A program made the translations under genes and the position numbers. The notes under the pieces are model-generated. The model worked only from the letters and a program-made list of their open reading frames with translations. It was not told the DNA's origin and made no database searches. A DNA stretch of 64,000 bases from Gordonia sp. (in: high G+C Gram-positive bacteria) (lineage in GTDB: Bacteria > Actinomycetota > Actinomycetes > Mycobacteriales > Mycobacteriaceae), in contig NZ_JASGKN010000001.1 of the NCBI RefSeq assembly GCF_047600565.1, positions 221,628 through 285,627 on the forward strand. The letters run 5' to 3'. Below, in pieces: positions 8,986 through 20,099 of this stretch (the first letter of the stretch is position 1; each line of letters opens with the position of its first letter).

Positions 8986-9421
8986 CGCCGGATCCCGCGA
9001 GTTGCCGACCGTCGCCGACACCGAGGCCTTCGGCGCGGAACTGGCCGGCATCCTGCGGGCCGGCGACCTGGTGATCCTCGATGGACCGCTGGGAGCCGGC
9101 AAGACGGCGCTGACCCGCGGCATCGCGGCCGGCCTCGGCGTGCAAGGCCGCGTCTCGTCGCCGACGTTCATCATCGCCCGCCAGCATCGGCCGGGGGAGG
9201 CCGGCGGCCCGGGCCTCGTGCACGTCGACGCCTACCGGCTCAGCGGGCTCGACGACCTCGACGCGCTGGACCTCGACACCGATCTCGACGACGCCGTCGT
9301 CGTCGTCGAATGGGGGGAAGGTGTGGCCGAACAGCTCGTCGACGAATATCTGCTGGTGCGTCTGCGCCGCGACGACGACTCGGAGGTGCGTCGGGTGACC
9401 TGGGAATGGGAGCGCCGATGA
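8969..9421 (+). CDS. tsaE: tRNA t6A37 biosynthesis ATPase TsaE
   Basis: P-loop GPLGAGKTALTRGIA and the motif VVVEWGE. Confidence 0.9.
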   Translation: MVTRTDAGSRELPTVADTEAFGAELAGILRAGDLVILDGPLGAGKTALTRGIAAGLGVQGRVSSPTFIIARQHRPGEAGGPGLVHVDAYRLSGLDDLDALDLDTDLDDAVVVVEWGEGVAEQLVDEYLLVRLRRDDDSEVRRVTWEWERR

Positions 9422-10095
9422 AGATCCTGGCCATCGACACCGCCACCCCGGCCGTCGTCACCGGTGCCGTCGACCTCTCACCGGATCAGACTCCGGTGGC
9501 GGTCGCCGAACGGGTCGTGCACGACCATCGCCGGCACGCGGAAGTGCTGACGACCCTGATGGCCGAGGTACTGGCCGAGGCCGGCTGGACCGGCGCCGAC
9601 CTCGACGCCGTGGTGGTCGGCTGCGGCCCGGGACCGTTCACCGGTCTGCGAGTCGGAATGGCCACGGCGGCCGCCTACGCCGACGCCCTCGCCGTGCCGG
9701 TGCACGGCGTCTGCTCACTGGACGCCGTGGCCGCCGCCGTCGAGGCCGACGGCGGCGAGCGGCCGCTGCTGGTGGTGACCGACGCCCGTCGCCGCGAGGT
9801 GTACTGGGCCCGCTACACGGCCGGCACCCGGAGCGCCGGCCCCGACGTGTGCGCCCCCGACGCCGTCGACCCGGCCGGCGCGGTGCTGGTCGCCGGCACC
9901 CCCGGATTCTCCGACCGCTACGGTCTGCCCGTCTCGCCCGTCGAGGTGCCGACCGCCGCCTCGCTCGTCACCGCAGCGGCCGGTGCGCTGAGGGCCGGCA
10001 CCGCACCGGAACCGCTCACCCCGCTCTACCTGCGTCGCCCCGACGCCGTCGAACTGAAGGACCAGCGACGCAAGTCGCTGCTGCCGGAGAAGTGA
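9418..10095 (+). CDS. tsaB: tRNA t6A37 biosynthesis protein TsaB
   Basis: MKILAIDTATPAVV and GPGPFTGLRVG. ATG 9418 overlaps the tsaE stop. Confidence 0.9.
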   Translation: MKILAIDTATPAVVTGAVDLSPDQTPVAVAERVVHDHRRHAEVLTTLMAEVLAEAGWTGADLDAVVVGCGPGPFTGLRVGMATAAAYADALAVPVHGVCSLDAVAAAVEADGGERPLLVVTDARRREVYWARYTAGTRSAGPDVCAPDAVDPAGAVLVAGTPGFSDRYGLPVSPVEVPTAASLVTAAAGALRAGTAPEPLTPLYLRRPDAVELKDQRRKSLLPEK

Positions 10096-10595
10096 CGGAT
10101 CAGGCCGGCTTCGTCGTCGACGACCTCGCCCTCGCCGACCTGCCGCGATGCGCGGAACTCGAAGCGCACCTGTTCGCCGGCGAGAGCCCCTGGCCCCTCG
10201 AAGGCTTCGTCAGCGAACTCGCCGCCCCCCACAACCGCTATTTCGCCCTGCGGGATTCGAGCGGCGGCGGAGAACTCGCGGGATACGCGGGCATCAGCCT
10301 GCTCGGACCGCCCGGCGAGCACGAATGCGAGATCCACACCATCGCCGTCGCCCCCGAACACCGCGGGCGCGGTGGCGGACGGATCCTCCTCGACCGGCTG
10401 CTGGAAGTTGCCGACGCCCAGGCCGCCCCGGTATTCCTGGAGGTGCGCACCGACAACACCGTCGCCCTCACCCTGTACGGCAGCGTCGGATTCACCGTCG
10501 CCGGGGTGCGCCGCAACTACTATCAGCCGTCCGGCGCCGACGCCTACGTCATGGCCAGGCCGCCGTCCGACAAGCTCAAGGAGCGTGACGCATGA
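10092..10595 (+). CDS. rimI: Ribosomal-protein-alanine N-acetyltransferase (GNAT)
   Basis: GNAT core [24 protein letters not shown] 10092 overlaps the tsaB stop. Its position in the tsaEBD cluster supports the call. Confidence 0.85.
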
Positions 10596-11620
10596 TCGTC
10601 ATGGGCATCGAGAGCTCGTGCGACGAGACCGGTGTCGGCATCGTCGGCTGGGACGGCGAGAAGGCCACCCTGCTCGCCGACGAGGTCGCCTCGAGCGTCG
10701 ACGAACAGGCCCGCTACGGCGGCGTGGTGCCCGAGGTGGCGTCCCGCGCCCACCTCGAAGCGATCGTGCCGACCATGCAGCGGGCCCGCGAGACCGCCGG
10801 CATCGACCGTCCCGACGCCATCGCCGTCACCATCGGTCCCGGTCTCGCCGGGGCACTGCTGGTCGGTGTCGCCGCCGCCAAGGCCTACGCCCTCGCCTGG
10901 GACGTCCCGCTGTACGCGTTGAACCATCTCGGCGGGCACGTCGCCGTCGACACCCTCGAGCACGGACCCCTGCCGCCGGCCGTCGCGCTGCTGGTGTCGG
11001 GCGGTCACACCCACCTGCTCGGCATCACCGACCTCGCCCAGCCGATCGACGAACTCGGCACCACCATCGACGACGCGGCCGGCGAAGCCTTCGACAAGGT
11101 GGCGCGGCTCCTCGACATGGGCTACCCGGGCGGGCCCGCCATCGACCGGGCGGCCCGCGACGGCGACCCGGAGGCGATCCGGTTCCCGCGCGGTCTGACC
11201 GGTCCGCGCGACGCCCCCTACGACTTCTCGTTCAGTGGACTCAAGACGGCTGTCGCCCGCTACGTGGAGGGCGAGGTGAAAGCCGGCCGTGAGGTGAGCG
11301 TTCCCGATGTGGCGGCCTCGTTCCAGGAGGCGGTCGCCGACGTGCTCACCGCCAAGGCGCTCCGCGCCTGCGCGGACCGCGGCGTCGACACCCTGGTGCT
11401 CGGCGGCGGCGCCACCGCCAACTCGCGGATCCGGTCGCTCGCCGAGGAACGCACCCGCGCCGCGGGCATCGATCTGCGGGTGCCCGCGCCGCGCCTGTGC
11501 ACCGACAACGGAGTGATGATCGCGACGCTCGGCGCGCACGTGATCGGCAGCGGCGCCCCGCCGTCACCCCTGACCGTGGCCACCGATCCGGGCATGAGCG
11601 TCCAGATCAGCAAGCTGTAG
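10592..11620 (+). CDS. tsaD: tRNA N6-adenosine threonylcarbamoyltransferase
   Basis: [15 protein letters not shown] and metal-binding LNHLGGHV...SGGHTHLL. Confidence 0.95.
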
Positions 11621-12424
11621 TCACTGATCCAGCGTCGCTCCACCGTCGACACGGAGATCGTGCAGGGTGATGTGCCGGGCCGCGTCGGAGGCCAGGAACG
11701 TCACCGTGGCGGCGATGTCCTCGGGCTGCGCCAGCCGCTGCAACGGGATCCCGAGCCGGTACTGGTCGGGGGTGCCGGCGATGACGGCGGCGGCGTGCTC
11801 GTCGGGGGAGCGGTCACCGGCCCACATGCCGCGCAGCATCGGGGTGTCCGTCGATCCGGGGGACACCACGTTGCAGCGGACTCCGCGCGACGACAGCTCC
11901 AGTCCGACGCTGCGGACCAGTGAGGTGACCGCGGCCTTGGTCGCACCGTAGGCACCCAATCCGAGTCGCGGGCTGGCACCCGAGTTCGAGGAGACCACCG
12001 TGATGGTGCCGCCGTCGGCGACGGTACGGGTCGCCGCGCGCAGCAGGGCCATCGTCGCGGTCGTGTTGACGGCGACGAGACGATCCCAGTCGGCGTCGGT
12101 CAGGTCGGCGATGGTGCCGGTCGTCAACACGCCCGCGGTGTGGGCGATCGTGGTGAGCGGCCCGCCCAGTCGCTGCGGCGCCTCGGCGACCAGGTCGGCG
12201 ACCGCGTCCCGATCGGCCAGATCCGCCACCAGTGCGGTGGCGCCGAGCTCACCGGCGACCTGCTCCACAGCCGGATCGACGTCCGAGAGCAGGACCTGGG
12301 CGCCGGCGTCGACGAAGGCGCGGGCGACGGCCCGACCGATGCCGCCCGCCGCACCGGTCACCAGCGCCCGCCGGCCCGCCAGTCGATCAGGCATCGGCTG
12401 ATCAGGCATCGGCTGATCAGGCAT
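11621..12424 (-). CDS. 2,3-dihydro-2,3-dihydroxybenzoate dehydrogenase-like SDR (EntA/DhbA type)
   Basis: Rossmann motif VTGAAGGIGRAV and the SDR C-terminal region NVVSPGSTDTPM. It is the last gene of the NRPS-isochorismatase operon. Three candidate ATG starts (12424, 12409, 12394) lie in a 15-bp repeat. Confidence 0.8.
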   Translation of the reverse strand: MPDQPMPDQPMPDRLAGRRALVTGAAGGIGRAVARAFVDAGAQVLLSDVDPAVEQVAGELGATALVADLADRDAVADLVAEAPQRLGGPLTTIAHTAGVLTTGTIADLTDADWDRLVAVNTTATMALLRAATRTVADGGTITVVSSNSGASPRLGLGAYGATKAAVTSLVRSVGLELSSRGVRCNVVSPGSTDTPMLRGMWAGDRSPDEHAAAVIAGTPDQYRLGIPLQRLAQPEDIAATVTFLASDAARHITLHDLRVDGGATLDQ

Positions 12425-12429
12425 CGGCG
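12385..12429. repeat. 3 x 15-bp tandem repeat at the isochorismatase/dehydrogenase gene junction
   Basis: gatcaggcatcggct occurs three times, the third copy with one mismatch. On the minus strand it reads MPDQP MPDQP MPD. Confidence 0.9.
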
Positions 12430-13070
12430 GCGGCCTTCACCCCGAGCGCGGCCAGCGCGTCGGCCGTCGCCAGCGGCACCCCGCACGTGGTGCTCACGTA
12501 GTCGACCGCGGCGCCGTGGAAGGGGGCGTTGAAGTCGGCGACCGCGTCGGTCACCAGAAACGCCTGCACGTCCTGCATGAACGCGTCCGCCGCGGTCAGC
12601 ATGACGCCGATGTGTGCGTAGATGCCGGTGATGATCAGCTGATCGCGGCCGTCATGGGCCAGCAGCGAGCGCAGATCGGTGCGCGCGAACGCCGAGTACC
12701 GCCACTTGGTGATCTCGACGTCGTTCGGGCGAGTCGCCAGGTCGTCGATGATCCGGGCCTCGTCGTCGTCTCCGATCCCGGTGCCCCAGCGTTCGGTGAG
12801 CAGACCGCGGCGCGACGGATGCTGACGTGGCGGCTGCGCGGTGTAGACGACCGGCATCCCCGCCCGGTCGGCGGCGTCGCGCAGTGCCGCGATGTTCGGG
12901 ATCACCGTGGCCAGAGGTTCGGCGCCCGGCTCGTAGGCGTCCACGAAGTAGTTCTGCATGTCGTGGATCAACAGGGCGGCCCGGTCCGGGTCGATGGTCC
13001 AGTCCAGCTGGGGCGTCGTCCGCACCGTGACGTCGGCCATGGTGTACGGCGCAATCGGGGGGATGGACAT
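12417..13070 (-). CDS. Isochorismatase (EntB/DhbB hydrolase domain only, no carrier domain)
   Basis: ALLIHDMQNYF and QLIITGIYAHIGV motifs. I prefer the start MSIPPIAPYT at 13070, which has a GGAGAA Shine-Dalgarno sequence. The protein is 217 aa, so it lacks the ArCP domain of EntB. Confidence 0.85.
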   Translation of the reverse strand: MSIPPIAPYTMADVTVRTTPQLDWTIDPDRAALLIHDMQNYFVDAYEPGAEPLATVIPNIAALRDAADRAGMPVVYTAQPPRQHPSRRGLLTERWGTGIGDDDEARIIDDLATRPNDVEITKWRYSAFARTDLRSLLAHDGRDQLIITGIYAHIGVMLTAADAFMQDVQAFLVTDAVADFNAPFHGAAVDYVSTTCGVPLATADALAALGVKAAADA

Positions 13071-13081
13071 GGGTTCTCCGA

Positions 13082-16000
13082 TCAGGATTCGGGATGGTGG
13101 TCGGTGGGAGCGGTCAGCTCGGTCAGGAGGAGGTCGGCCCACCACGGCAGGTCGTGGCCGCCGGGATAGGTGGTCAGGGACACCGGCCAGCCGGCGTCGG
13201 ACAGTTCACGGGCCAGTGCGCCGACCGGATCGACGAGCAGACGCTCGTTGAGTCCCACCGCGAGCCGAAGGGGCCGCGGGGGCGCCGACTCGAGTTCGCC
13301 GGCGATCCAGCTGCGGTCGCCGCCGACGTCGGCCGGGCGACCGGTCAGGCCGGGCTTCCACCAGAGCGACGGTGAGTAGACGATCAACTCGTCGACCGCA
13401 TCGGGATGCCAGGCGGCGGCGGCGAGCGCCGTCAGGCCGCCCAGGCTCTGCCCGGTCCACACGACCGTGGTCGGGCCCTCGAGGCGCGCCCTGGCGTGAG
13501 CCACGGTGTCGGCGACGGCGCGGACGAAGTCGCGGTTGGCGCCGAGCTGCTGCAGCCGGGCGGGACCGCCGGCCGGAGAATCGATGCCGAGCAGGGCGAT
13601 CGGGGCGCCCGAGCCGGCGCGGGCGAGAACACCGGGCAGGTCGCACACGTCGAACCACTTGTCCGCGTCCGGAACCACGACCAGTCGGGTCGGCTGCTGC
13701 CGGTCGCCGCCGGACGGTGCGATCAGCCGCCATCGGATCGGGTCGCCCGGTCCCGGCAGGACTCCTTCGGCGAGCGGTGCGGGCCGGTCGTCGCCGACCC
13801 GCCAGCCGTCGAGGTCCGGGGCGCCGTCGGTGACCAGGACCGACCCGAACGGGGAGGACTGTGCGTCCGGGTTCGTCGGATCGCTGACGGCGGCGTCGGC
13901 CACCGGCCGGGAGTAGCGGAGACGGCCGTCGACGAGAGCCGGGTCGTCGGCGCGGTACGGGTAGAAACGGTAGGTGGCCAGGGTGCCGCGCGGCACCGCG
14001 AACTCGGTGAACCACAGCGGAGTCGAACCCCAGCGACGCAGTTCGCCGTCCGGGCCGTCCGGGGCGTCGGTGATCCGGTTGACCCAGGCGTACACGCCGG
14101 CCGCGTCGTCCGGTGCCGTATGGGTGAGCAGCACCCGCTGCGACGCCGGGTCGTCGGGATGGTCGGTGATCAGCGGGGTTCCGTGGCGGCGCAGAGCGTC
14201 CATCACCTCGTCCGCGTCGGCACCGGGCTCGGTGTCGACGATGCGGGACCGCAGCGCCTCGGGGCCGTCGCCGGTGCAGCGGTCCACGGCGGGGTCGGCG
14301 AGGGCGGCCGCCACGGTGGCCAGAGTCTCCGGCGACACCATGCCGGGATGGTTCACCGGCAGCTCGGTGTAGGCCACCGAGCCCTCGATGTGAGGTTCCC
14401 ACGCTCGCGGCGAAAGGAAGTCCTCGGCGCTCTCGGCGGCCGCGTAGTGCCGCGCGTCAGCGCCGATCACCCCGGTGCGGTGCGCGCGCATGAGGGTCGC
14501 GAAGTGGGCGACGACATCGGTGATGCGGCGGACCTGTTCGGTGGTCAGACCGCCCAGGGCCGCATGGTTCTCGCGCAGCGCCGCCAGTACGTCGTCGTCC
14601 GACCGCAGGTCGTCGTCCGACGAGTCGGCGCCCGCCATGATCAGCAGGGCACGCCGCACCTCGGCGGGGGTGGCGGGCGGCTGATCGGCCCAGCATTCGC
14701 TGGGGTAGGCGTCCAGCAGCACCACCTGGCTCACCTCGCGGCCCCGCTCGGAGGCCAGGACGGCGATCTCGTGGGCGATCACGCCGCCCACCGACCAGCC
14801 GAGCAGCCGGATCGGGCCGTCCGGGGCGACCGAGTCGATGGTGTCGAGGTAGCTGCGGGCGACCTCGGTGATCGACTCGGGCAGCGGTCCGCCGTCCAGG
14901 CCGTCGGCCTGCAACGCGTACAGGCCGATCCGCGGATCGAGAACCGGAAGCAGGCCGGCGTAACACCAGCCGAGACCGCCGGCGGGATGGATCGCGAACA
15001 CCGGGGCCACCCGATCACCGGGGTCGCCGCCGTCCGGGGCCGGCCGCAAGGTGAGGAGCCGCCCGAAGGCGTCGCCGGATTCTCCGCCGTCCAGGCGGGC
15101 CGCGAGGGCGGCCACCGACGGGGCACCGAACAGGTCGGCCACCCCGAACGGTTCGCCCAGGGCCTCCGAGCATCGGCGCGCCAGCACCGAGGCGGTCAGC
15201 GACGTGCCACCGAGATCGAAGAAGCTGTCGGTCACCGACACGTGGTCACGTCCCAGGGCGGCGGCGAACAGCGGCTCCAGCGCGGCCTCCCGCGGAGAGC
15301 GCGGAGCGACCACGTCGTCGCTGCCGAGCTGCGGCTCGGGAAGTGCGCGGCGATCCAGCTTGCCGTTGCGGGTCATCGGCAGAGCGGCCAGCACCTCGAC
15401 GGCGTCGGGAACCATGTACGACGGCAGTCGGCGCGACAACCGGTCACGCAGGTCGGTGCTGTCCACCTCGACGCCGACGGCCGGGACGACGTACCCGACG
15501 ATGAGGGTGGACGGGCCGGTACCGGTGACGACCTCACGGGTGATCACGGCGGCCTGATCGACACCGTCGAGGTCGGCCAGAGCGGCCTGGATCTCGCCCA
15601 GCTCGATGCGTCGGCCGCGGACCTTCACCTGATCGTCCACCCGGCCGTCGTAGATCAGCAGACCGGCGTCGTCGCGGTGCACCAGGTCGCCGGTCGCGTA
15701 CATGCGCTCGCCGGCGACGAACGGATCGGGCACGAACTTCTGCGCCGTCAGCTCCGGCCGGCCGACGTAGCCGCGCGCCAGCTGGATACCGGCCAGATAC
15801 AGTTCGCCGACCGCGCCGGGGACCTGCGGGCGCCGGGCCGAGTCCAGCACGTAGGTGCGGGTGTTGGCGATGGGGGAGCCGATCGGCACCTCGGTGCCGT
15901 CCCAGTCCGGTCCGGGGGTCCACTCGGTGACGTCGACGGCGGCCTCGGTCGGACCGTACAGGTTCGCGATCCGCGTGCCCGGCAGAGTGTCGAGACCGCG

Positions 16001-18160
16001 GCGCAGCACGTCCGGCGGCAGCGCTTCACCGGAGCACACCACCAGCCGCAGCGGATTGGGTCCGGCATCGGCTGGGCCGGCGGCGAGGAAGGCGGCCAGC
16101 GCCGACGGGACGAAGTGGCAGACCGTGATGCCCTGGGCGACGAACTCCCGGGCCAGGCCAGCGCTGTCGCGTTCGAGTCCCGGAGTGGCCAGCACCAGGG
16201 TGGCCCCGGTGATCAACGGCCAGAAGAACTCCCATACCGAGACGTCGAACGAATACGGAGTCTTCTGCACCACCCGATCGTCACCGGTGAGCGTGAACTC
16301 CCGATCCATCCACAGCAGCCGGTTCACGATGCTGCGGTGCTCGACCAGCACGCCCTTCGGCCGTCCGGTCGATCCGGACGTGAAGATGATGTACGCGCCG
16401 TCCTCCGGGGTCGGCGGCTCGTCTCCGGTGCTCGAGTCCGGCACGTTCGGTGAGTCCGTCGACGGGAGCGACTCGATCCGCAGCGCCAGACCGTCGTGCG
16501 TCCAGTCGGGGTCGTCGCCGTCCGGCGCTGTCAGCAGGACGCGTGCCCGGGTGTCCTCGAGCATGCCGTCGATGCGTTCGGCGGGCAGTTCCGGATCGAT
16601 CGGCAGATAGGCGGCGCCGCAGTCGAGGGCGGCGAGCAGTCCGGCGACGGTCTCGGGGGAGCGGACCAGCCGGAGAGCGACCACGTCGCCGCGGCCGACG
16701 CCGCGCCGGCGCAGTTCGGCCGCCAGCGAGGAGACCGTCGCGCGCAGTCCGGCGTAGGTGAGCGCGTTCTCGCCCCAGACCAGTGCGGTGCGGTCGGCGA
16801 ATCGGTCACCGGCCGCCGCCAGCAACGCCGTCAGCGTCGTGGTGGAGGCCGTCTCCCGCAGCGCGGGATCGTCGGTGCGGTTGAGCTCGACCACCTCGTG
16901 CCGCGCCTCCTGCGCGGTGGCGATCGGCAGCGAACCCAACGTCACAGCGGCGTCGTCGGCGCTGATCCGGGAGAGCAGCGCGGCGAGGCGGTCGGCGTGG
17001 GCGTGGGACTCGTCGACGCCGTAGCGCGCCGGATTGGTCTCCACTTCGAGCACGAAGCCGCCGTCCGGCGCAGGGGAACCGGTCACCGTCAGATCGTCGA
17101 CGGGACCCATCGCGATGTTGCCGACGGTGCCGGTGGCGTCGCCGAACGTCAGCTGCGGAGTGAAGAACTTCAGGTTGGCGCTCGGTCCGAACAGCGGGGT
17201 ATCGGCCCCGACCAGACCCAGATCGCGGCGCAGGCGGTCGGCGCGATAGCCGGTGTGCGGCCGGACGGTGCGCAGCTCGGTGGCGACGGCGCCGATCAAC
17301 TCGCCGACCGTCATCGTGGGGGTCGCCTCCACCCGCAACGGCAGGATGTTGACCTCCGGCTCCATGGTGGGCGGAGCCCCCAGCCGCCGGTTGGCCCACG
17401 GGACACCGAGGGTCACCGAGGTCTCGCCGGTCAGCGTGGCGGTGTAGCAGGCCAGGGTCGCCATCAGCGATTCCGCCCAGCCCCGGTCGGTGTTGGCGGT
17501 ACGCGGTGCCAGACGCACGGTGGTGCGCCGCGCGCGTGCGGTCGCCGGGGACGGCTCGGCGCGGGACACCGACGGCGGTCGCGCCGAGTCCAGATAGCCG
17601 GCCCAGAACTCGGCATCCTCGGGCGTCGGGGCGTCGGCAGTTGGGTCGGGGGCGGCCGGGTCGGGGGTGGCGAACGGCGACTCCGGGAGGGGATCTCCGG
17701 CGGCGTCGGCCGTGTACGAGTCGGCGATCCAGCGCAGCAGTCGCGCGAACGAGTAGCCGTCCACCGCGACGTGATGGATCCGGGTGATCCAGACGTGCCG
17801 GTCGTCGCCGATCCGGACCAGGTGCTGAGCGGAGAGCTGCTCGCCCGCGATCGTGTTCGAGATCGGCGGGCAGCCCATCGCGGCATCGACGACCGCGTCC
17901 AGCTGCTCGCCGGCGTCGTGCACCACCACCGGGTGCCGGCGGGGCTCGGGGATCCGCCGCGGTCCGTCGCCGTCGTCGGTGTACCGGGCGTTCAGCGCGG
18001 GCACCTGCGCCAGGCATCGGCTCACGACGTCGGCGAAGCGTTCGGCGTCGAAGGGGCCGTCGATCTCCACCCGCTCCGCGCACTGATAGACCGGTGCGTC
18101 GGCGACCTGCTGCTGGGCGAACCACACAGCGAGCTGAGCGGGGGTCAGGTCGACGGACAA
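13082..18160 (-). CDS. Single-module NRPS (C-A-T-TE) fused to a C-terminal enterochelin-esterase (Fes)-like domain
   Basis: C domain: HHVAVDGYS at aa 129-137. A domain: YIIFTSGSTGRPKGV, NLYGPTEA, YATGDLV, GRVDDQVKVRGRRIELGEI, NGKLDRRAL. T domain: FFDLGGTSL with Ser987. TE domain: GWSVGG with Ser1123. From about aa 1305 to 1692 there is an esterase with WFTEFAVPRGTLATYRFYPY and WTGQSLGGLTAL (Ser1572). Confidence 0.93.
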   Translation of the reverse strand: MSVDLTPAQLAVWFAQQQVADAPVYQCAERVEIDGPFDAERFADVVSRCLAQVPALNARYTDDGDGPRRIPEPRRHPVVVHDAGEQLDAVVDAAMGCPPISNTIAGEQLSAQHLVRIGDDRHVWITRIHHVAVDGYSFARLLRWIADSYTADAAGDPLPESPFATPDPAAPDPTADAPTPEDAEFWAGYLDSARPPSVSRAEPSPATARARRTTVRLAPRTANTDRGWAESLMATLACYTATLTGETSVTLGVPWANRRLGAPPTMEPEVNILPLRVEATPTMTVGELIGAVATELRTVRPHTGYRADRLRRDLGLVGADTPLFGPSANLKFFTPQLTFGDATGTVGNIAMGPVDDLTVTGSPAPDGGFVLEVETNPARYGVDESHAHADRLAALLSRISADDAAVTLGSLPIATAQEARHEVVELNRTDDPALRETASTTTLTALLAAAGDRFADRTALVWGENALTYAGLRATVSSLAAELRRRGVGRGDVVALRLVRSPETVAGLLAALDCGAAYLPIDPELPAERIDGMLEDTRARVLLTAPDGDDPDWTHDGLALRIESLPSTDSPNVPDSSTGDEPPTPEDGAYIIFTSGSTGRPKGVLVEHRSIVNRLLWMDREFTLTGDDRVVQKTPYSFDVSVWEFFWPLITGATLVLATPGLERDSAGLAREFVAQGITVCHFVPSALAAFLAAGPADAGPNPLRLVVCSGEALPPDVLRRGLDTLPGTRIANLYGPTEAAVDVTEWTPGPDWDGTEVPIGSPIANTRTYVLDSARRPQVPGAVGELYLAGIQLARGYVGRPELTAQKFVPDPFVAGERMYATGDLVHRDDAGLLIYDGRVDDQVKVRGRRIELGEIQAALADLDGVDQAAVITREVVTGTGPSTLIVGYVVPAVGVEVDSTDLRDRLSRRLPSYMVPDAVEVLAALPMTRNGKLDRRALPEPQLGSDDVVAPRSPREAALEPLFAAALGRDHVSVTDSFFDLGGTSLTASVLARRCSEALGEPFGVADLFGAPSVAALAARLDGGESGDAFGRLLTLRPAPDGGDPGDRVAPVFAIHPAGGLGWCYAGLLPVLDPRIGLYALQADGLDGGPLPESITEVARSYLDTIDSVAPDGPIRLLGWSVGGVIAHEIAVLASERGREVSQVVLLDAYPSECWADQPPATPAEVRRALLIMAGADSSDDDLRSDDDVLAALRENHAALGGLTTEQVRRITDVVAHFATLMRAHRTGVIGADARHYAAAESAEDFLSPRAWEPHIEGSVAYTELPVNHPGMVSPETLATVAAALADPAVDRCTGDGPEALRSRIVDTEPGADADEVMDALRRHGTPLITDHPDDPASQRVLLTHTAPDDAAGVYAWVNRITDAPDGPDGELRRWGSTPLWFTEFAVPRGTLATYRFYPYRADDPALVDGRLRYSRPVADAAVSDPTNPDAQSSPFGSVLVTDGAPDLDGWRVGDDRPAPLAEGVLPGPGDPIRWRLIAPSGGDRQQPTRLVVVPDADKWFDVCDLPGVLARAGSGAPIALLGIDSPAGGPARLQQLGANRDFVRAVADTVAHARARLEGPTTVVWTGQSLGGLTALAAAAWHPDAVDELIVYSPSLWWKPGLTGRPADVGGDRSWIAGELESAPPRPLRLAVGLNERLLVDPVGALARELSDAGWPVSLTTYPGGHDLPWWADLLLTELTAPTDHHPES

Positions 18161-18194
18161 AGGCGTGCTTCCGGATCGGTAGTCGGACTATAAG

Positions 18195-18213
18195 TAAGGT
18201 TAGCCTATGAACT
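18195..18213. promoter_or_regulatory. Weak candidate IdeR/DtxR iron box in the divergent NRPS / DHB-AMP ligase promoter region
   Basis: TAAGGTTAGCCTATGAACT matches the remembered consensus TTAGGTTAGCCTAACCTAA at 12 of 19 positions. The left half is nearly perfect and the right half is poor. It lies in an unusually AT-rich 64-nt intergenic region. Confidence 0.3.
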
Positions 18214-18224
18214 AGAATCCCCTC

Positions 18225-20099
18225 GTGGCTGGATATCCCCCCGAGTTCGCGCAGAAGTACCGAGACGCCGGTTATTGGATCGGCCAGACCCACTCCGATC
18301 TTCTCGCCTCAGCGGCCGAAGCGCACCCCGATGCGATCGCCGTCCGCGACGACCGCCGCGCCCTGACCTACCGCGAGGTGCTCGACGGATCCCGTCGTCT
18401 CGCGCACGGCCTCATCGACCGGTACGGCCTGCGGGCCGGTGATCGCGTCGTCGTCCAGTTCCCGAACGTCGCCGAATACGTCGAGGTGATCTTCGCGCTC
18501 TTCGACGCCGGTGTCCTCCCGGTGTTCGCCCTTTCCAGTCACGGTCTCGCCGAACTCGACGACCTGGCGGCCCGCAGCGATGCGGCCGCGTTCCTGACCG
18601 TCGACTCGTTCGGCGTCACCGACTTCGGTGATCGCGCCGCCCGTCTCGCCGCGACGAGAACGCACACCTCCGATGGCCGGCCGTTCGCGACGATCGTCGC
18701 CCGCCACGGCGCCGACGACCCTCTCGGGGAGTTCCGCGGCGAGCAGACCTCCTCCACCGGCCGCTCGAGCGGACCGGAGGAGATCGCGTTCCTCCAGCTG
18801 TCCGGCGGCACCACCGGGGCGCCCAAGATGATCGGCCGCACCCACGACGACTACCTCTACTCGGTGCGCGAGTCGGCCCGCATCTGCGGACTCGACGACA
18901 CCTCCGTGTTCGGCGTGGTCCTGCCGGTCTCGCACAACTTCACGATGAGTTCCCCCGGCATCCTCGGCGCGATCCACGCTGGCTCGCAGATCGTGATGGT
19001 GCCGGACACCGACGCCCGCACCGTCCTCTCGCAGATCGCCGAGCACGGGATCACGCACCTGTCGGCGGTGCCGCCGCTCGTCGCCGCCTGGCTCGATTCG
19101 GCCGAGGCCGGCCGGCACGACGTGTCGTCGCTGCAGGTGATGCAGGTCGGCGGCGCCAAACTGCTCGAGACCGTCGCCCGCCGGGTGCCGGACCTGTTTC
19201 CGTCGGTCACCCTGCAGCAGGTCTTCGGCATGGCCGAGGGACTGGTCAACTACACGCGCCTGGACGACGACGTCGACCGGATCGTCGCCACCCAGGGCCG
19301 CCCGATCAGCCCCGACGACGAGATCCGCATCGTCGATGCGGACGGGGTGGCGCTGCCCGACGGGCAGGAGGGCAGCCTGCAGACCCGGGGCCCGTACACG
19401 ATCCGCAACTACTGGGGCGGGGTCGCCGCCGACTCCTTCACGCCGGACGGCTTCTACTGCACCGGCGACCGCGTGATCCACGACGCGGCCGGCTATCTGA
19501 CGGTCGTGGGCCGCGACAAGGACCAGATCAACCGGGCCGGCGAGAAGATCGCCCCCACCGAGGTGGAGGACGTGCTGCTCGGCCACCCGGGCATCCGGGA
19601 CGCATCCGTGGTCGGCGCCCCCGACGAGCGGCTCGGCGAACGGATCGTCGCCTACGTCATCCCGTCGGCCGCCGCCCGTGCCGACGGGACCGCACTCGAC
19701 GAGTTCGGTGTCCGCGGATTCCTGCGCGAATCGGGTCTGGCCCGGTTCAAGATCCCGGACGACGTCCACATCGTCGACGAGTTCCCGACGACCGCGGTCG
19801 GCAAGATCAGCAAGAAGGATCAGCGCACGGAGGCCGCCGCAGTACCCGCGGCCGAACCCGCCGATGCCCTGGCCGCCGAACAGCTCCGCAAAGACCTGGC
19901 CGACAAGTTGATGGTCGATCCGGCCGCACTCGGCGATTCGCTGATGCTCGCCGACAGCGGCATCGACTCGCTCGCGCTGATGGCGCTGCTCGACAAGTGG
20001 CGGGCTGCCGGCGCCACCGGTCTCGACTTCGAGACCGTGGTGGCGGCACCCACCCTCGAAGCACTCTTCGACACCGTGCGGCAGGCCGGCGGCCGATGA
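18225..20099 (+). CDS. 2,3-dihydroxybenzoate-AMP ligase (EntE/DhbE type) fused to a C-terminal aryl carrier protein domain
   Basis: The N-terminus PPEFAQKYRDAGYW resembles EntE. Adenylation motifs: SGGTTGAPKMIGRTHDDY, YCTGDRV, GRDKDQINRAGEKIAPTEVE, VGKISKK. About 80 extra C-terminal residues carry the phosphopantetheine-site motif LADSGIDSLALMALL. Confidence 0.9.
   Translation: MAGYPPEFAQKYRDAGYWIGQTHSDLLASAAEAHPDAIAVRDDRRALTYREVLDGSRRLAHGLIDRYGLRAGDRVVVQFPNVAEYVEVIFALFDAGVLPVFALSSHGLAELDDLAARSDAAAFLTVDSFGVTDFGDRAARLAATRTHTSDGRPFATIVARHGADDPLGEFRGEQTSSTGRSSGPEEIAFLQLSGGTTGAPKMIGRTHDDYLYSVRESARICGLDDTSVFGVVLPVSHNFTMSSPGILGAIHAGSQIVMVPDTDARTVLSQIAEHGITHLSAVPPLVAAWLDSAEAGRHDVSSLQVMQVGGAKLLETVARRVPDLFPSVTLQQVFGMAEGLVNYTRLDDDVDRIVATQGRPISPDDEIRIVDADGVALPDGQEGSLQTRGPYTIRNYWGGVAADSFTPDGFYCTGDRVIHDAAGYLTVVGRDKDQINRAGEKIAPTEVEDVLLGHPGIRDASVVGAPDERLGERIVAYVIPSAAARADGTALDEFGVRGFLRESGLARFKIPDDVHIVDEFPTTAVGKISKKDQRTEAAAVPAAEPADALAAEQLRKDLADKLMVDPAALGDSLMLADSGIDSLALMALLDKWRAAGATGLDFETVVAAPTLEALFDTVRQAGGR

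Follow-up and report, generated by a model that had tools for sequence, protein, structure and literature searches.

A Gordonia protein in which an EntF-like synthetase module is joined to a Fes-like enterochelin esterase

Why would a siderophore synthetase be joined, in one polypeptide, to the type of esterase that takes its product apart? The question is raised by a gene on the minus strand at 13082-18160 of a 64,000-nucleotide stretch of DNA from Gordonia sp. (assembly GCF_047600565.1, contig NZ_JASGKN010000001.1, positions 221,628 to 285,627), the whole of which is called the window here. The gene encodes an EntF-like nonribosomal peptide synthetase (NRPS) module that runs, through a linker of about 12 residues, into a Fes-like esterase. 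It is a genuine in-frame gene fusion and one instance of a recurrent merger in Gordonia, in which two overlapping neighbour genes have become one protein. The gene and its parts are as follows, with residues counted in amino acids (aa).

13082..18160, minus strand: complete fusion gene of 1692 aa with a TTG start, for the EntF-like NRPS module and the Fes-like esterase (open reading frame list, translation, Pfam)
16955..18151, minus strand: condensation (C) domain, aa 4-402; PF00668, E 1.5e-26, with HHVAVDG (the HHxxxDG motif) at aa 129
15359..16813, minus strand: adenylation (A) domain, aa 450-934; PF00501 and PF13193, and TIGR01733 at 425.8 bits, above its cut-off
15092..15274, minus strand: peptidyl carrier (T) domain, aa 963-1023; PF00550, E 1.5e-11, with the phosphopantetheine Ser987 in GGTS
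14333..15004, minus strand: thioesterase (TE) domain, aa 1053-1276; PF00975, E 5.1e-24, with Ser1123 (GWSVGG), Asp1150 and His1271
14258..14296, minus strand: fusion junction or linker, aa ~1289-1301, DPAVDRCTGDGPE; takes the place of the ATGA stop/start overlap of split relatives
13802..14260, minus strand: Fes N-terminal part, aa 1301-1453; two short helices and the Enterochelin_N beta-sandwich (Pfam, AlphaFold, fold matches)
13085..13777, minus strand: Fes alpha/beta-hydrolase, aa ~1462-1692; PF00756, with Ser1572 (GQSLGG), Glu1639 and His1669 (GGHD)

The 1692 codons form a single open reading frame (ORF) with no internal stop or frameshift and with a strong codon bias throughout, in a window of about 70% G+C, and the N-terminus given by the TTG start aligns with Gordonia homologues that likewise begin at TTG. 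All Pfam matches on the protein exceed their gathering scores. An earlier note, made from the letters of the window, had read a single polypeptide of the order C-A-T-TE-Fes with a two-domain, Fes-like tail of about 390 residues. Profile, sequence and fold evidence bear out this order, the tail is confirmed by Pfam, NCBIfam and fold matches, and the motifs quoted in that note are all present (HHVAVDG at aa 129, GGTS with Ser987, GWSVGG with Ser1123 and GQSLGG with Ser1572). The interval of 13082-14248 that it gave for this finding does cover the Fes part, although this part is now set at 13085-14260 (aa 1301-1692). In public records, such fused proteins are labelled just "amino acid adenylation domain-containing protein" or putative NRPS.

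In the synthetase half, Pfam places AMP-binding at aa 450-798 and AMP-binding_C at aa 856-934. Aligned with HMMER to the EntF structure 5ja1, the A domain carries the specificity code DVWHVSLVDK, with positions taken from the segments FDVSVWE, HFVPS, VVCSGEAL, NLYGPTEAAVDV and NGKLDR. Since 9 of the 10 positions agree with the code of EntF (DVWHFSLVDK), the domain is predicted to activate serine; the first four positions had been counted by hand as D-V-W-H in the earlier note, which proved right, and the full code is of the serine type. Alignment to an NRPS thioesterase (7crn) and to the thioesterase of EntF (3tej), together with motif positions, gives a complete TE triad of S1123, D1150 and H1271 (in GWSVGG, LLDAYP and NHPGM, respectively), and a replacement of the TE by Fes was rejected because this triad is intact. 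The best solved relative of aa 5-1160 is EntF (HMMER, E 1.4e-195), and EntF (NF007605) is likewise the top NCBIfam match of the first 1160 residues, scoring 719.9 bits against an equivalog cut-off of 2400. By these scores, the synthetase half appears as an EntF-like homologue of the same architecture, not as a certified equivalog.

The tail is matched by both families expected in an enterochelin esterase, each above its gathering score: Enterochelin_N (PF11806) at aa 1350-1453, with 38.4 bits against a cut-off of 27.1, and Esterase (PF00756) at aa 1550-1682, with 31.1 bits against a cut-off of 22. Taken alone, the last 393 residues have a sole NCBIfam match, enterochelin esterase PRK10439 (NF007758; E 2.5e-22), which spans profile positions 10-408 of 418 and scores 79.4 bits against an equivalog cut-off of 222, and the tail is accordingly described as Fes-like, not as the same enzyme as Fes. 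Residues S1572 (GQSLGG), E1639 (GLNERL) and H1669 (GGHD), which we take to be the catalytic triad from what is known of Fes, line up with their counterparts in Fes structure 2b20 and are unvarying across the 13 fused and stand-alone relatives of one alignment (A1). Modelled with AlphaFold2 on the same alignment, the tail gives a structure of high quality (mean predicted local distance difference test score 89.8, predicted template modelling score 0.88), and the beta-sandwich is visible in it. When the model was compared with the PDB using Foldseek, the 11 best matches were all Fes of Shigella and Salmonella (3c8d, 2b20, 3c87 and 3mga), covering both domains of the tail (E ~1e-22, template modelling score 0.67-0.74). 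They are followed by CBM48-feruloyl esterases and, further down, by fungal siderophore esterases.

Across the TE, linker and Fes parts, the third-position GC (GC3) stays at 0.85-1.00 in one frame, and it is 1.00 in the linker itself. Because GC3 is continuous and the fusion recurs in the assemblies of other species, the fused ORF is neither a chance open frame nor a likely indel artefact, and a hidden frameshift or stop at the junction was rejected on the same two grounds. The earlier note had named a hidden stop, separating two ordinary adjacent genes, as the finding that would overturn its reading; this fails for the Gordonia source genome, and just such an arrangement is the state in related Gordonia. 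A restart of translation that would yield a separate Fes was considered at the in-frame GTG of V1292, and no Shine-Dalgarno-like sequence precedes this codon.

The fusion recurs within Gordonia, where about 10 other proteins have it. This type of fes was found in 21 of 92 Gordonia species genomes and is fused in 8 of the 21, the source genome included; one of these 8 loci is cut by a contig end, and another has a frameshift in the NRPS in an Oxford Nanopore (ONT) assembly. Full-length fused homologues are encoded by G. araii, G. defluvii, G. asplenii, sp. X0973, sp. NPDC003424, several metagenome-assembled genomes (MAGs) and two Logan assemblies, with an identity of 42-66% in the Fes part. In the 2.93-Mb source genome, which is one contig, the fused gene is the only gene with Enterochelin_N. 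A search with the tail alone, among 1.84 billion representative proteins, gave stand-alone Fes-like proteins of about 400 aa as the closest relatives, and the only NRPS-linked entries among the best 150 matches were the cluster of the query and a fragment of another Gordonia fusion. The other long matches (P0044, P0058, P0064 and P0129) are distant Fes-Fes tandems of 870-1000 aa, in each of which Enterochelin_N and Esterase stretches occur twice.

Three loci deserve separate mention. The closest relative of the window protein lies at 4037-9176 of L008, from Gordonia MAG 5N007 (ONT), and keeps the TE-Fes fusion; its A domain has a frameshift around aa 752-772, either an assembly error or the mark of a pseudogene. 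MAG L002 was rejected as a fused member, as the 1445-aa frame around its fes stays open by chance in DNA of high GC; its NRPS is in a different frame from fes and ends at an ATGA overlap. Finally, G. hirsuta DSM 44140 has, at 8001-9074 of L009, a fes orthologue that is 57% identical and falls within the fused clade. The 8 kb upstream of it hold no NRPS, which suggests that biosynthesis was lost and the esterase retained.

How the fusion arose can be read from the split relatives, which are G. amarae, sp. ABSL1-1, sp. VNK21 and the MAGs L002, L004, L006 and L037. In these, an NRPS of about 1280-1320 aa is followed immediately by fes in another frame. Junctions were compared across 12 Gordonia loci, and the five split junctions that were read (L002, L004, L006, sp. 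ABSL1-1 and sp. VNK21) have a 4-nt stop/start overlap, ATGA, which is GTGA in VNK21. Fused genes are without this overlap, their frames being connected by a short linker. The linkers vary in length and sequence between fused species, and the first, N-terminal Fes helices are missing in the fusions of G. asplenii and sp. X0973. In trees built by maximum likelihood, one from 36 sequences of the Fes part and one from 15 of the NRPS part, fused and split forms are intermixed, requiring at least 4 changes of state, and constraining the seven main-clade fusions to a single group lowers the log-likelihood by 145 units (p = 7.7e-8 in the approximately unbiased test). A single origin of the main-clade fusion is therefore rejected by both trees and by this test.

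The most telling pair consists of the split L002 and the fused L003, which are sisters with support of 100/100. The junction of L003 reads ...LEGR-PQRLD..., as against ...LEGRR* overlapping MTAPRFD in L002, and from our reading of both sequences it may be explained if about 8 nt, TCGATGAC, that spanned the overlap were deleted. A junction string, GTCGATGACCG, is common to L002 and L004/L006. Because fused and split forms interleave in the trees, L002 and L003 differ by this deletion, and L002 shares GTCGATGACCG with L004/L006, we think that the main clade descends from a split state and underwent fusion repeatedly; on parsimony, the alternative is one early fusion followed by two fissions. The ancestral NRPS and fes would thus have been translationally coupled neighbours with overlapping stop and start codons (ATGA or GTGA). 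A small indel across the overlap deletes the stop and puts fes in the frame of the NRPS, a step that has occurred, or been reversed, several times in Gordonia.

The genes around the fusion, referred to here as the island, include those for EntA-, EntB- and EntE-ArCP-like enzymes, and a divergent promoter lies upstream of the fusion.

12417..13070, minus strand: isochorismatase (EntB-like, without an aryl carrier domain, ArCP); PF00857, E 1.8e-39
11621..12424, minus strand: 2,3-dihydro-2,3-dihydroxybenzoate dehydrogenase (EntA-like); Pfam SDR, and NF006074 and TIGR04316, E ~1e-79
18225..20099, plus strand: 2,3-dihydroxybenzoate (DHB)-AMP ligase (EntE-like) fused to an aryl carrier domain; Pfam AMP-binding and PP-binding, TIGR02275
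20096-21256, plus strand: M20 amidohydrolase; TIGR01891 above cut-off, with its start in the stop-codon region of the EntE-ArCP gene
18161..18224, between the divergent genes: AT-rich divergent promoter of 64 nt; holds a predicted IdeR/DtxR-type iron box, TAGGCTAACCTTA, on the NRPS strand

The ATG of the isochorismatase, at 13070, lies 11 nt past the NRPS-Fes stop and has a GGAGAA ribosome-binding site ahead of it. The EntA-like dehydrogenase scores just under the equivalog cut-offs of NF006074 and TIGR04316, and the EntE-like ligase matches TIGR02275 (DHB_AMP_lig) with E 1.3e-171, also under its equivalog cut-off. The aryl carrier is thus borne by the DHB-AMP ligase and not by the isochorismatase, and the Gordonia relative L006 has the same A-ArCP layout. 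At 12385-12428, a 15-bp unit is repeated in perfect tandem (2.9 copies, 100% match), and this repeat falls exactly where the isochorismatase stop overlaps the start of the EntA-like dehydrogenase. On the other strand, the M20 amidohydrolase could cleave an N-aroyl amino acid, e.g., DHB-Ser, for recycling, and its gene is followed by one for a YncE-like beta-propeller. The far end of the island abuts tsaD directly (tsaD ends at 11620).

Searching the window for the strict 19-mer IdeR consensus with up to 3 mismatches gave no match, and the iron box, at which 12 of 19 consensus positions are matched, was recognised by comparison with relatives. TAGGCTAACCTAA, the right-hand 13 nt of the IdeR/DtxR consensus, or a near variant of it stands at the same promoter position in nine Gordonia loci, and this right-hand consensus is matched at 13 of 13 positions in L002, L004 and L006. 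The divergent promoter may therefore be under IdeR-type iron control. Outside the island, the genome encodes three siderophore-type binding proteins and four chorismate-utilising genes, one of them PabB; L041 was tried as an isochorismate synthase and rejected when it turned out to be PabB. One locus (G000:C1:1909602-1910382, L042/L043) has a chorismate-binding gene with the last ~30 profile positions in another open frame. It could be a frameshift or a pseudogene, and it might be the MenF/EntC-type enzyme that the island lacks. In the split relative L006, the cluster also holds FecCD permease and Peripla_BP_2 genes (1115-2395 and 9182-10180).

Taken together, these parts suggest a working order for the pathway. 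The protein comprises a single-module EntF-type NRPS, which would act iteratively, and, past the linker, a complete Fes-type enterochelin esterase, and it is probably bifunctional, with its halves acting as separate EntF-like and Fes-like enzymes would. Upon iron starvation, IdeR would let go of the divergent promoter, the EntE-ArCP protein would load DHB, and the NRPS half would join DHB to serine. The TE would then oligomerise and release an enterobactin-like (DHB-Ser)n catecholate, which would be exported, capture iron and be re-imported, whereupon the esterase half would hydrolyse the serine ester backbone in the cytoplasm and so free the iron. The fusion would lock the two enzymes at a 1:1 stoichiometry that translational coupling already approximates. 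In the best-supported reading, the fusion is a cheap mutational outcome of the stop/start overlap. By the comparison of genes, the tether itself would seem nearly neutral and the fusion of little mechanistic consequence, because fused and split forms alternate between sister taxa and the linkers are unconserved.

Several points weigh against this overall explanation. A tethered cytoplasmic esterase could destroy the apo-product, in which case the halves would not be independent. The equivalog cut-offs of both EntF and Fes are missed, so functional identity with the E. coli enzymes is not established by these profiles. The island contains no isochorismate synthase, hence isochorismate must come from a chorismate-utilising gene elsewhere, and it contains no exporter or uptake genes. 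Moreover, an MbtH-like gene is absent from the whole 2.93-Mb genome; in E. coli, EntF requires the MbtH-like protein YbdZ.

The main rival, itself unlikely, is processing built into the protein, with the tethered Fes acting in cis on the fresh trilactone or on TE-bound oligomers, so that a linear DHB-Ser trimer, dimer or monomer would be delivered and not the macrolactone, or stalled intermediates would be cleared. An esterase placed about 12 residues past the TE would face a high local substrate concentration, its Fes triad is intact, and the fusion has been kept without decay in several species at 42-66% identity. Fes also hydrolyses apo-enterobactin, and IroE linearises salmochelins ahead of secretion. 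However, the alternation of fused and split forms in sister taxa means that nothing essential seems to depend on the tether, and no dedicated interface is suggested by unconserved linkers and by the deletion of N-terminal Fes helices in G. asplenii and sp. X0973. In addition, separate proteins that are translationally coupled in one cytoplasm would meet the same substrate. The proposal that the Fes domain is a functional unit of the assembly line, which tailors or recycles in cis by opening the trilactone or oligomers on or just off the TE, is likewise unlikely. If it held, fused species would secrete linear DHB-Ser oligomers or salvage unexported product at once, and this would be a previously undescribed NRPS off-loading logic that could be compared directly with split sister species.

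It is improbable, in turn, that the esterase serves the piracy of xenosiderophores or acts on a product other than a serine trilactone, its link to the NRPS being a genomic accident. Close relatives of fes without an adjacent NRPS do occur in G. hirsuta, Tsukamurella and Streptomyces, and with no isochorismate synthase in the island and no MbtH in the genome the biosynthetic half might be weak or inactive. Yet the adjacency of NRPS and fes is kept in at least 14 Gordonia loci, along with DHB genes and the iron box, and the NRPS core motifs and serine code are all intact. A decaying fusion, with one half a catalytically dead passenger, is very improbable: while it would fit a small genome (2.93 Mb) and an island without transport genes, 1692 codons run without stops or frameshifts and with strong codon bias, catalytic residues are present in the C, A, T, TE and Fes parts, and the model of the Fes part is of high confidence. 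Very unlikely, too, is an assembly artefact in which a long-read indel error joined separate NRPS and fes genes. In its favour, the single 2.93-Mb contig would fit a long-read assembly, the A domain of the closest relative, the ONT MAG L008, is interrupted by a frameshift, and to join the frames a single indel of +1 or -2 at an ATGA overlap would be enough. Against it, no trace of ATGA or GTGA is left in the right register, the linker exceeds its counterpart in split relatives in length and has GC3 of 1.00 in the common frame, and independent assemblies of other isolates, among them G. araii, G. defluvii and G. asplenii, show the same fusion.

Both enzyme types are textbook parts of catecholate siderophore metabolism, and the covalent union of a synthetase with the esterase that degrades its product was not found in the literature searched; full-text searches gave no report of an NRPS-Fes synthetase fusion or of a Gordonia catecholate cluster. 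The main value of the locus lies in the natural comparison of fused with split forms. Gordonia offers a natural experiment, in which sister lineages have fused or split, coupled genes and the converting mutation is visible. It makes testable how tethering affects product spectrum, flux and futile hydrolysis, how NRPSs gain terminal domains and how easily stop/start overlaps become linkers. Should the halves act independently, the value would be mainly for annotation and as a clean illustration of how losing an ATGA overlap can fuse two genes.

Among known systems, E. coli EntF (5ja1, 5t3d) shares the single-module C-A-T-TE order, and the TE serine, aspartate and histidine are found in both; the window protein alone has about 390 extra C-terminal residues, the Fes esterase. 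The system as a whole also differs from that of EntF, as the source genome lacks an MbtH/YbdZ partner and the aryl carrier is on the EntE-like protein, not on EntB. The Fes proteins of E. coli, Shigella and Salmonella (2b20, 3c87, 3mga) have the same build of beta-sandwich and esterase-D-type alpha/beta-hydrolase, with the GxSxG serine, the glutamate and the GGHD histidine aligned at an identity of only ~20-22%. The esterase of the window is covalently attached to the synthetase, in contrast to Fes, and E. coli has fes as a gene of its own, located upstream of ybdZ-entF. The ester-backbone hydrolases IroD, IroE, BesA, PfeE and fungal EstA/EstB/SidJ share the esterase-D-type fold and the hydrolysis of siderophore ester backbones, EstA and EstB being weaker fold and sequence matches of the tail; to our knowledge, all of these are stand-alone and none is fused to a synthetase. 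A second serine hydrolase after the terminal TE, on the same polypeptide, is likewise seen in NRPSs with TE-TE termini, e.g., those of lysobactin and arthrofactin, where the additional domains, thioesterase-family paralogues, serve in off-loading or proofreading. Tandem C-terminal hydrolases are also known from the tri-TE of enduracidin (PMC13320435). Compared by domain family only, the window protein differs from TE-TE and tri-TE enzymes in that its extra unit is a product-degrading esterase of the Fes family with a beta-sandwich of its own. Also close are the split Gordonia pairs (G. amarae, ABSL1-1, VNK21, L002, L004 and L006), which are orthologues with the same cluster, divergent EntE-ArCP gene and iron box; their Fes is 41-63% identical and their NRPS up to 73%, and they are encoded by two ORFs and not by one.

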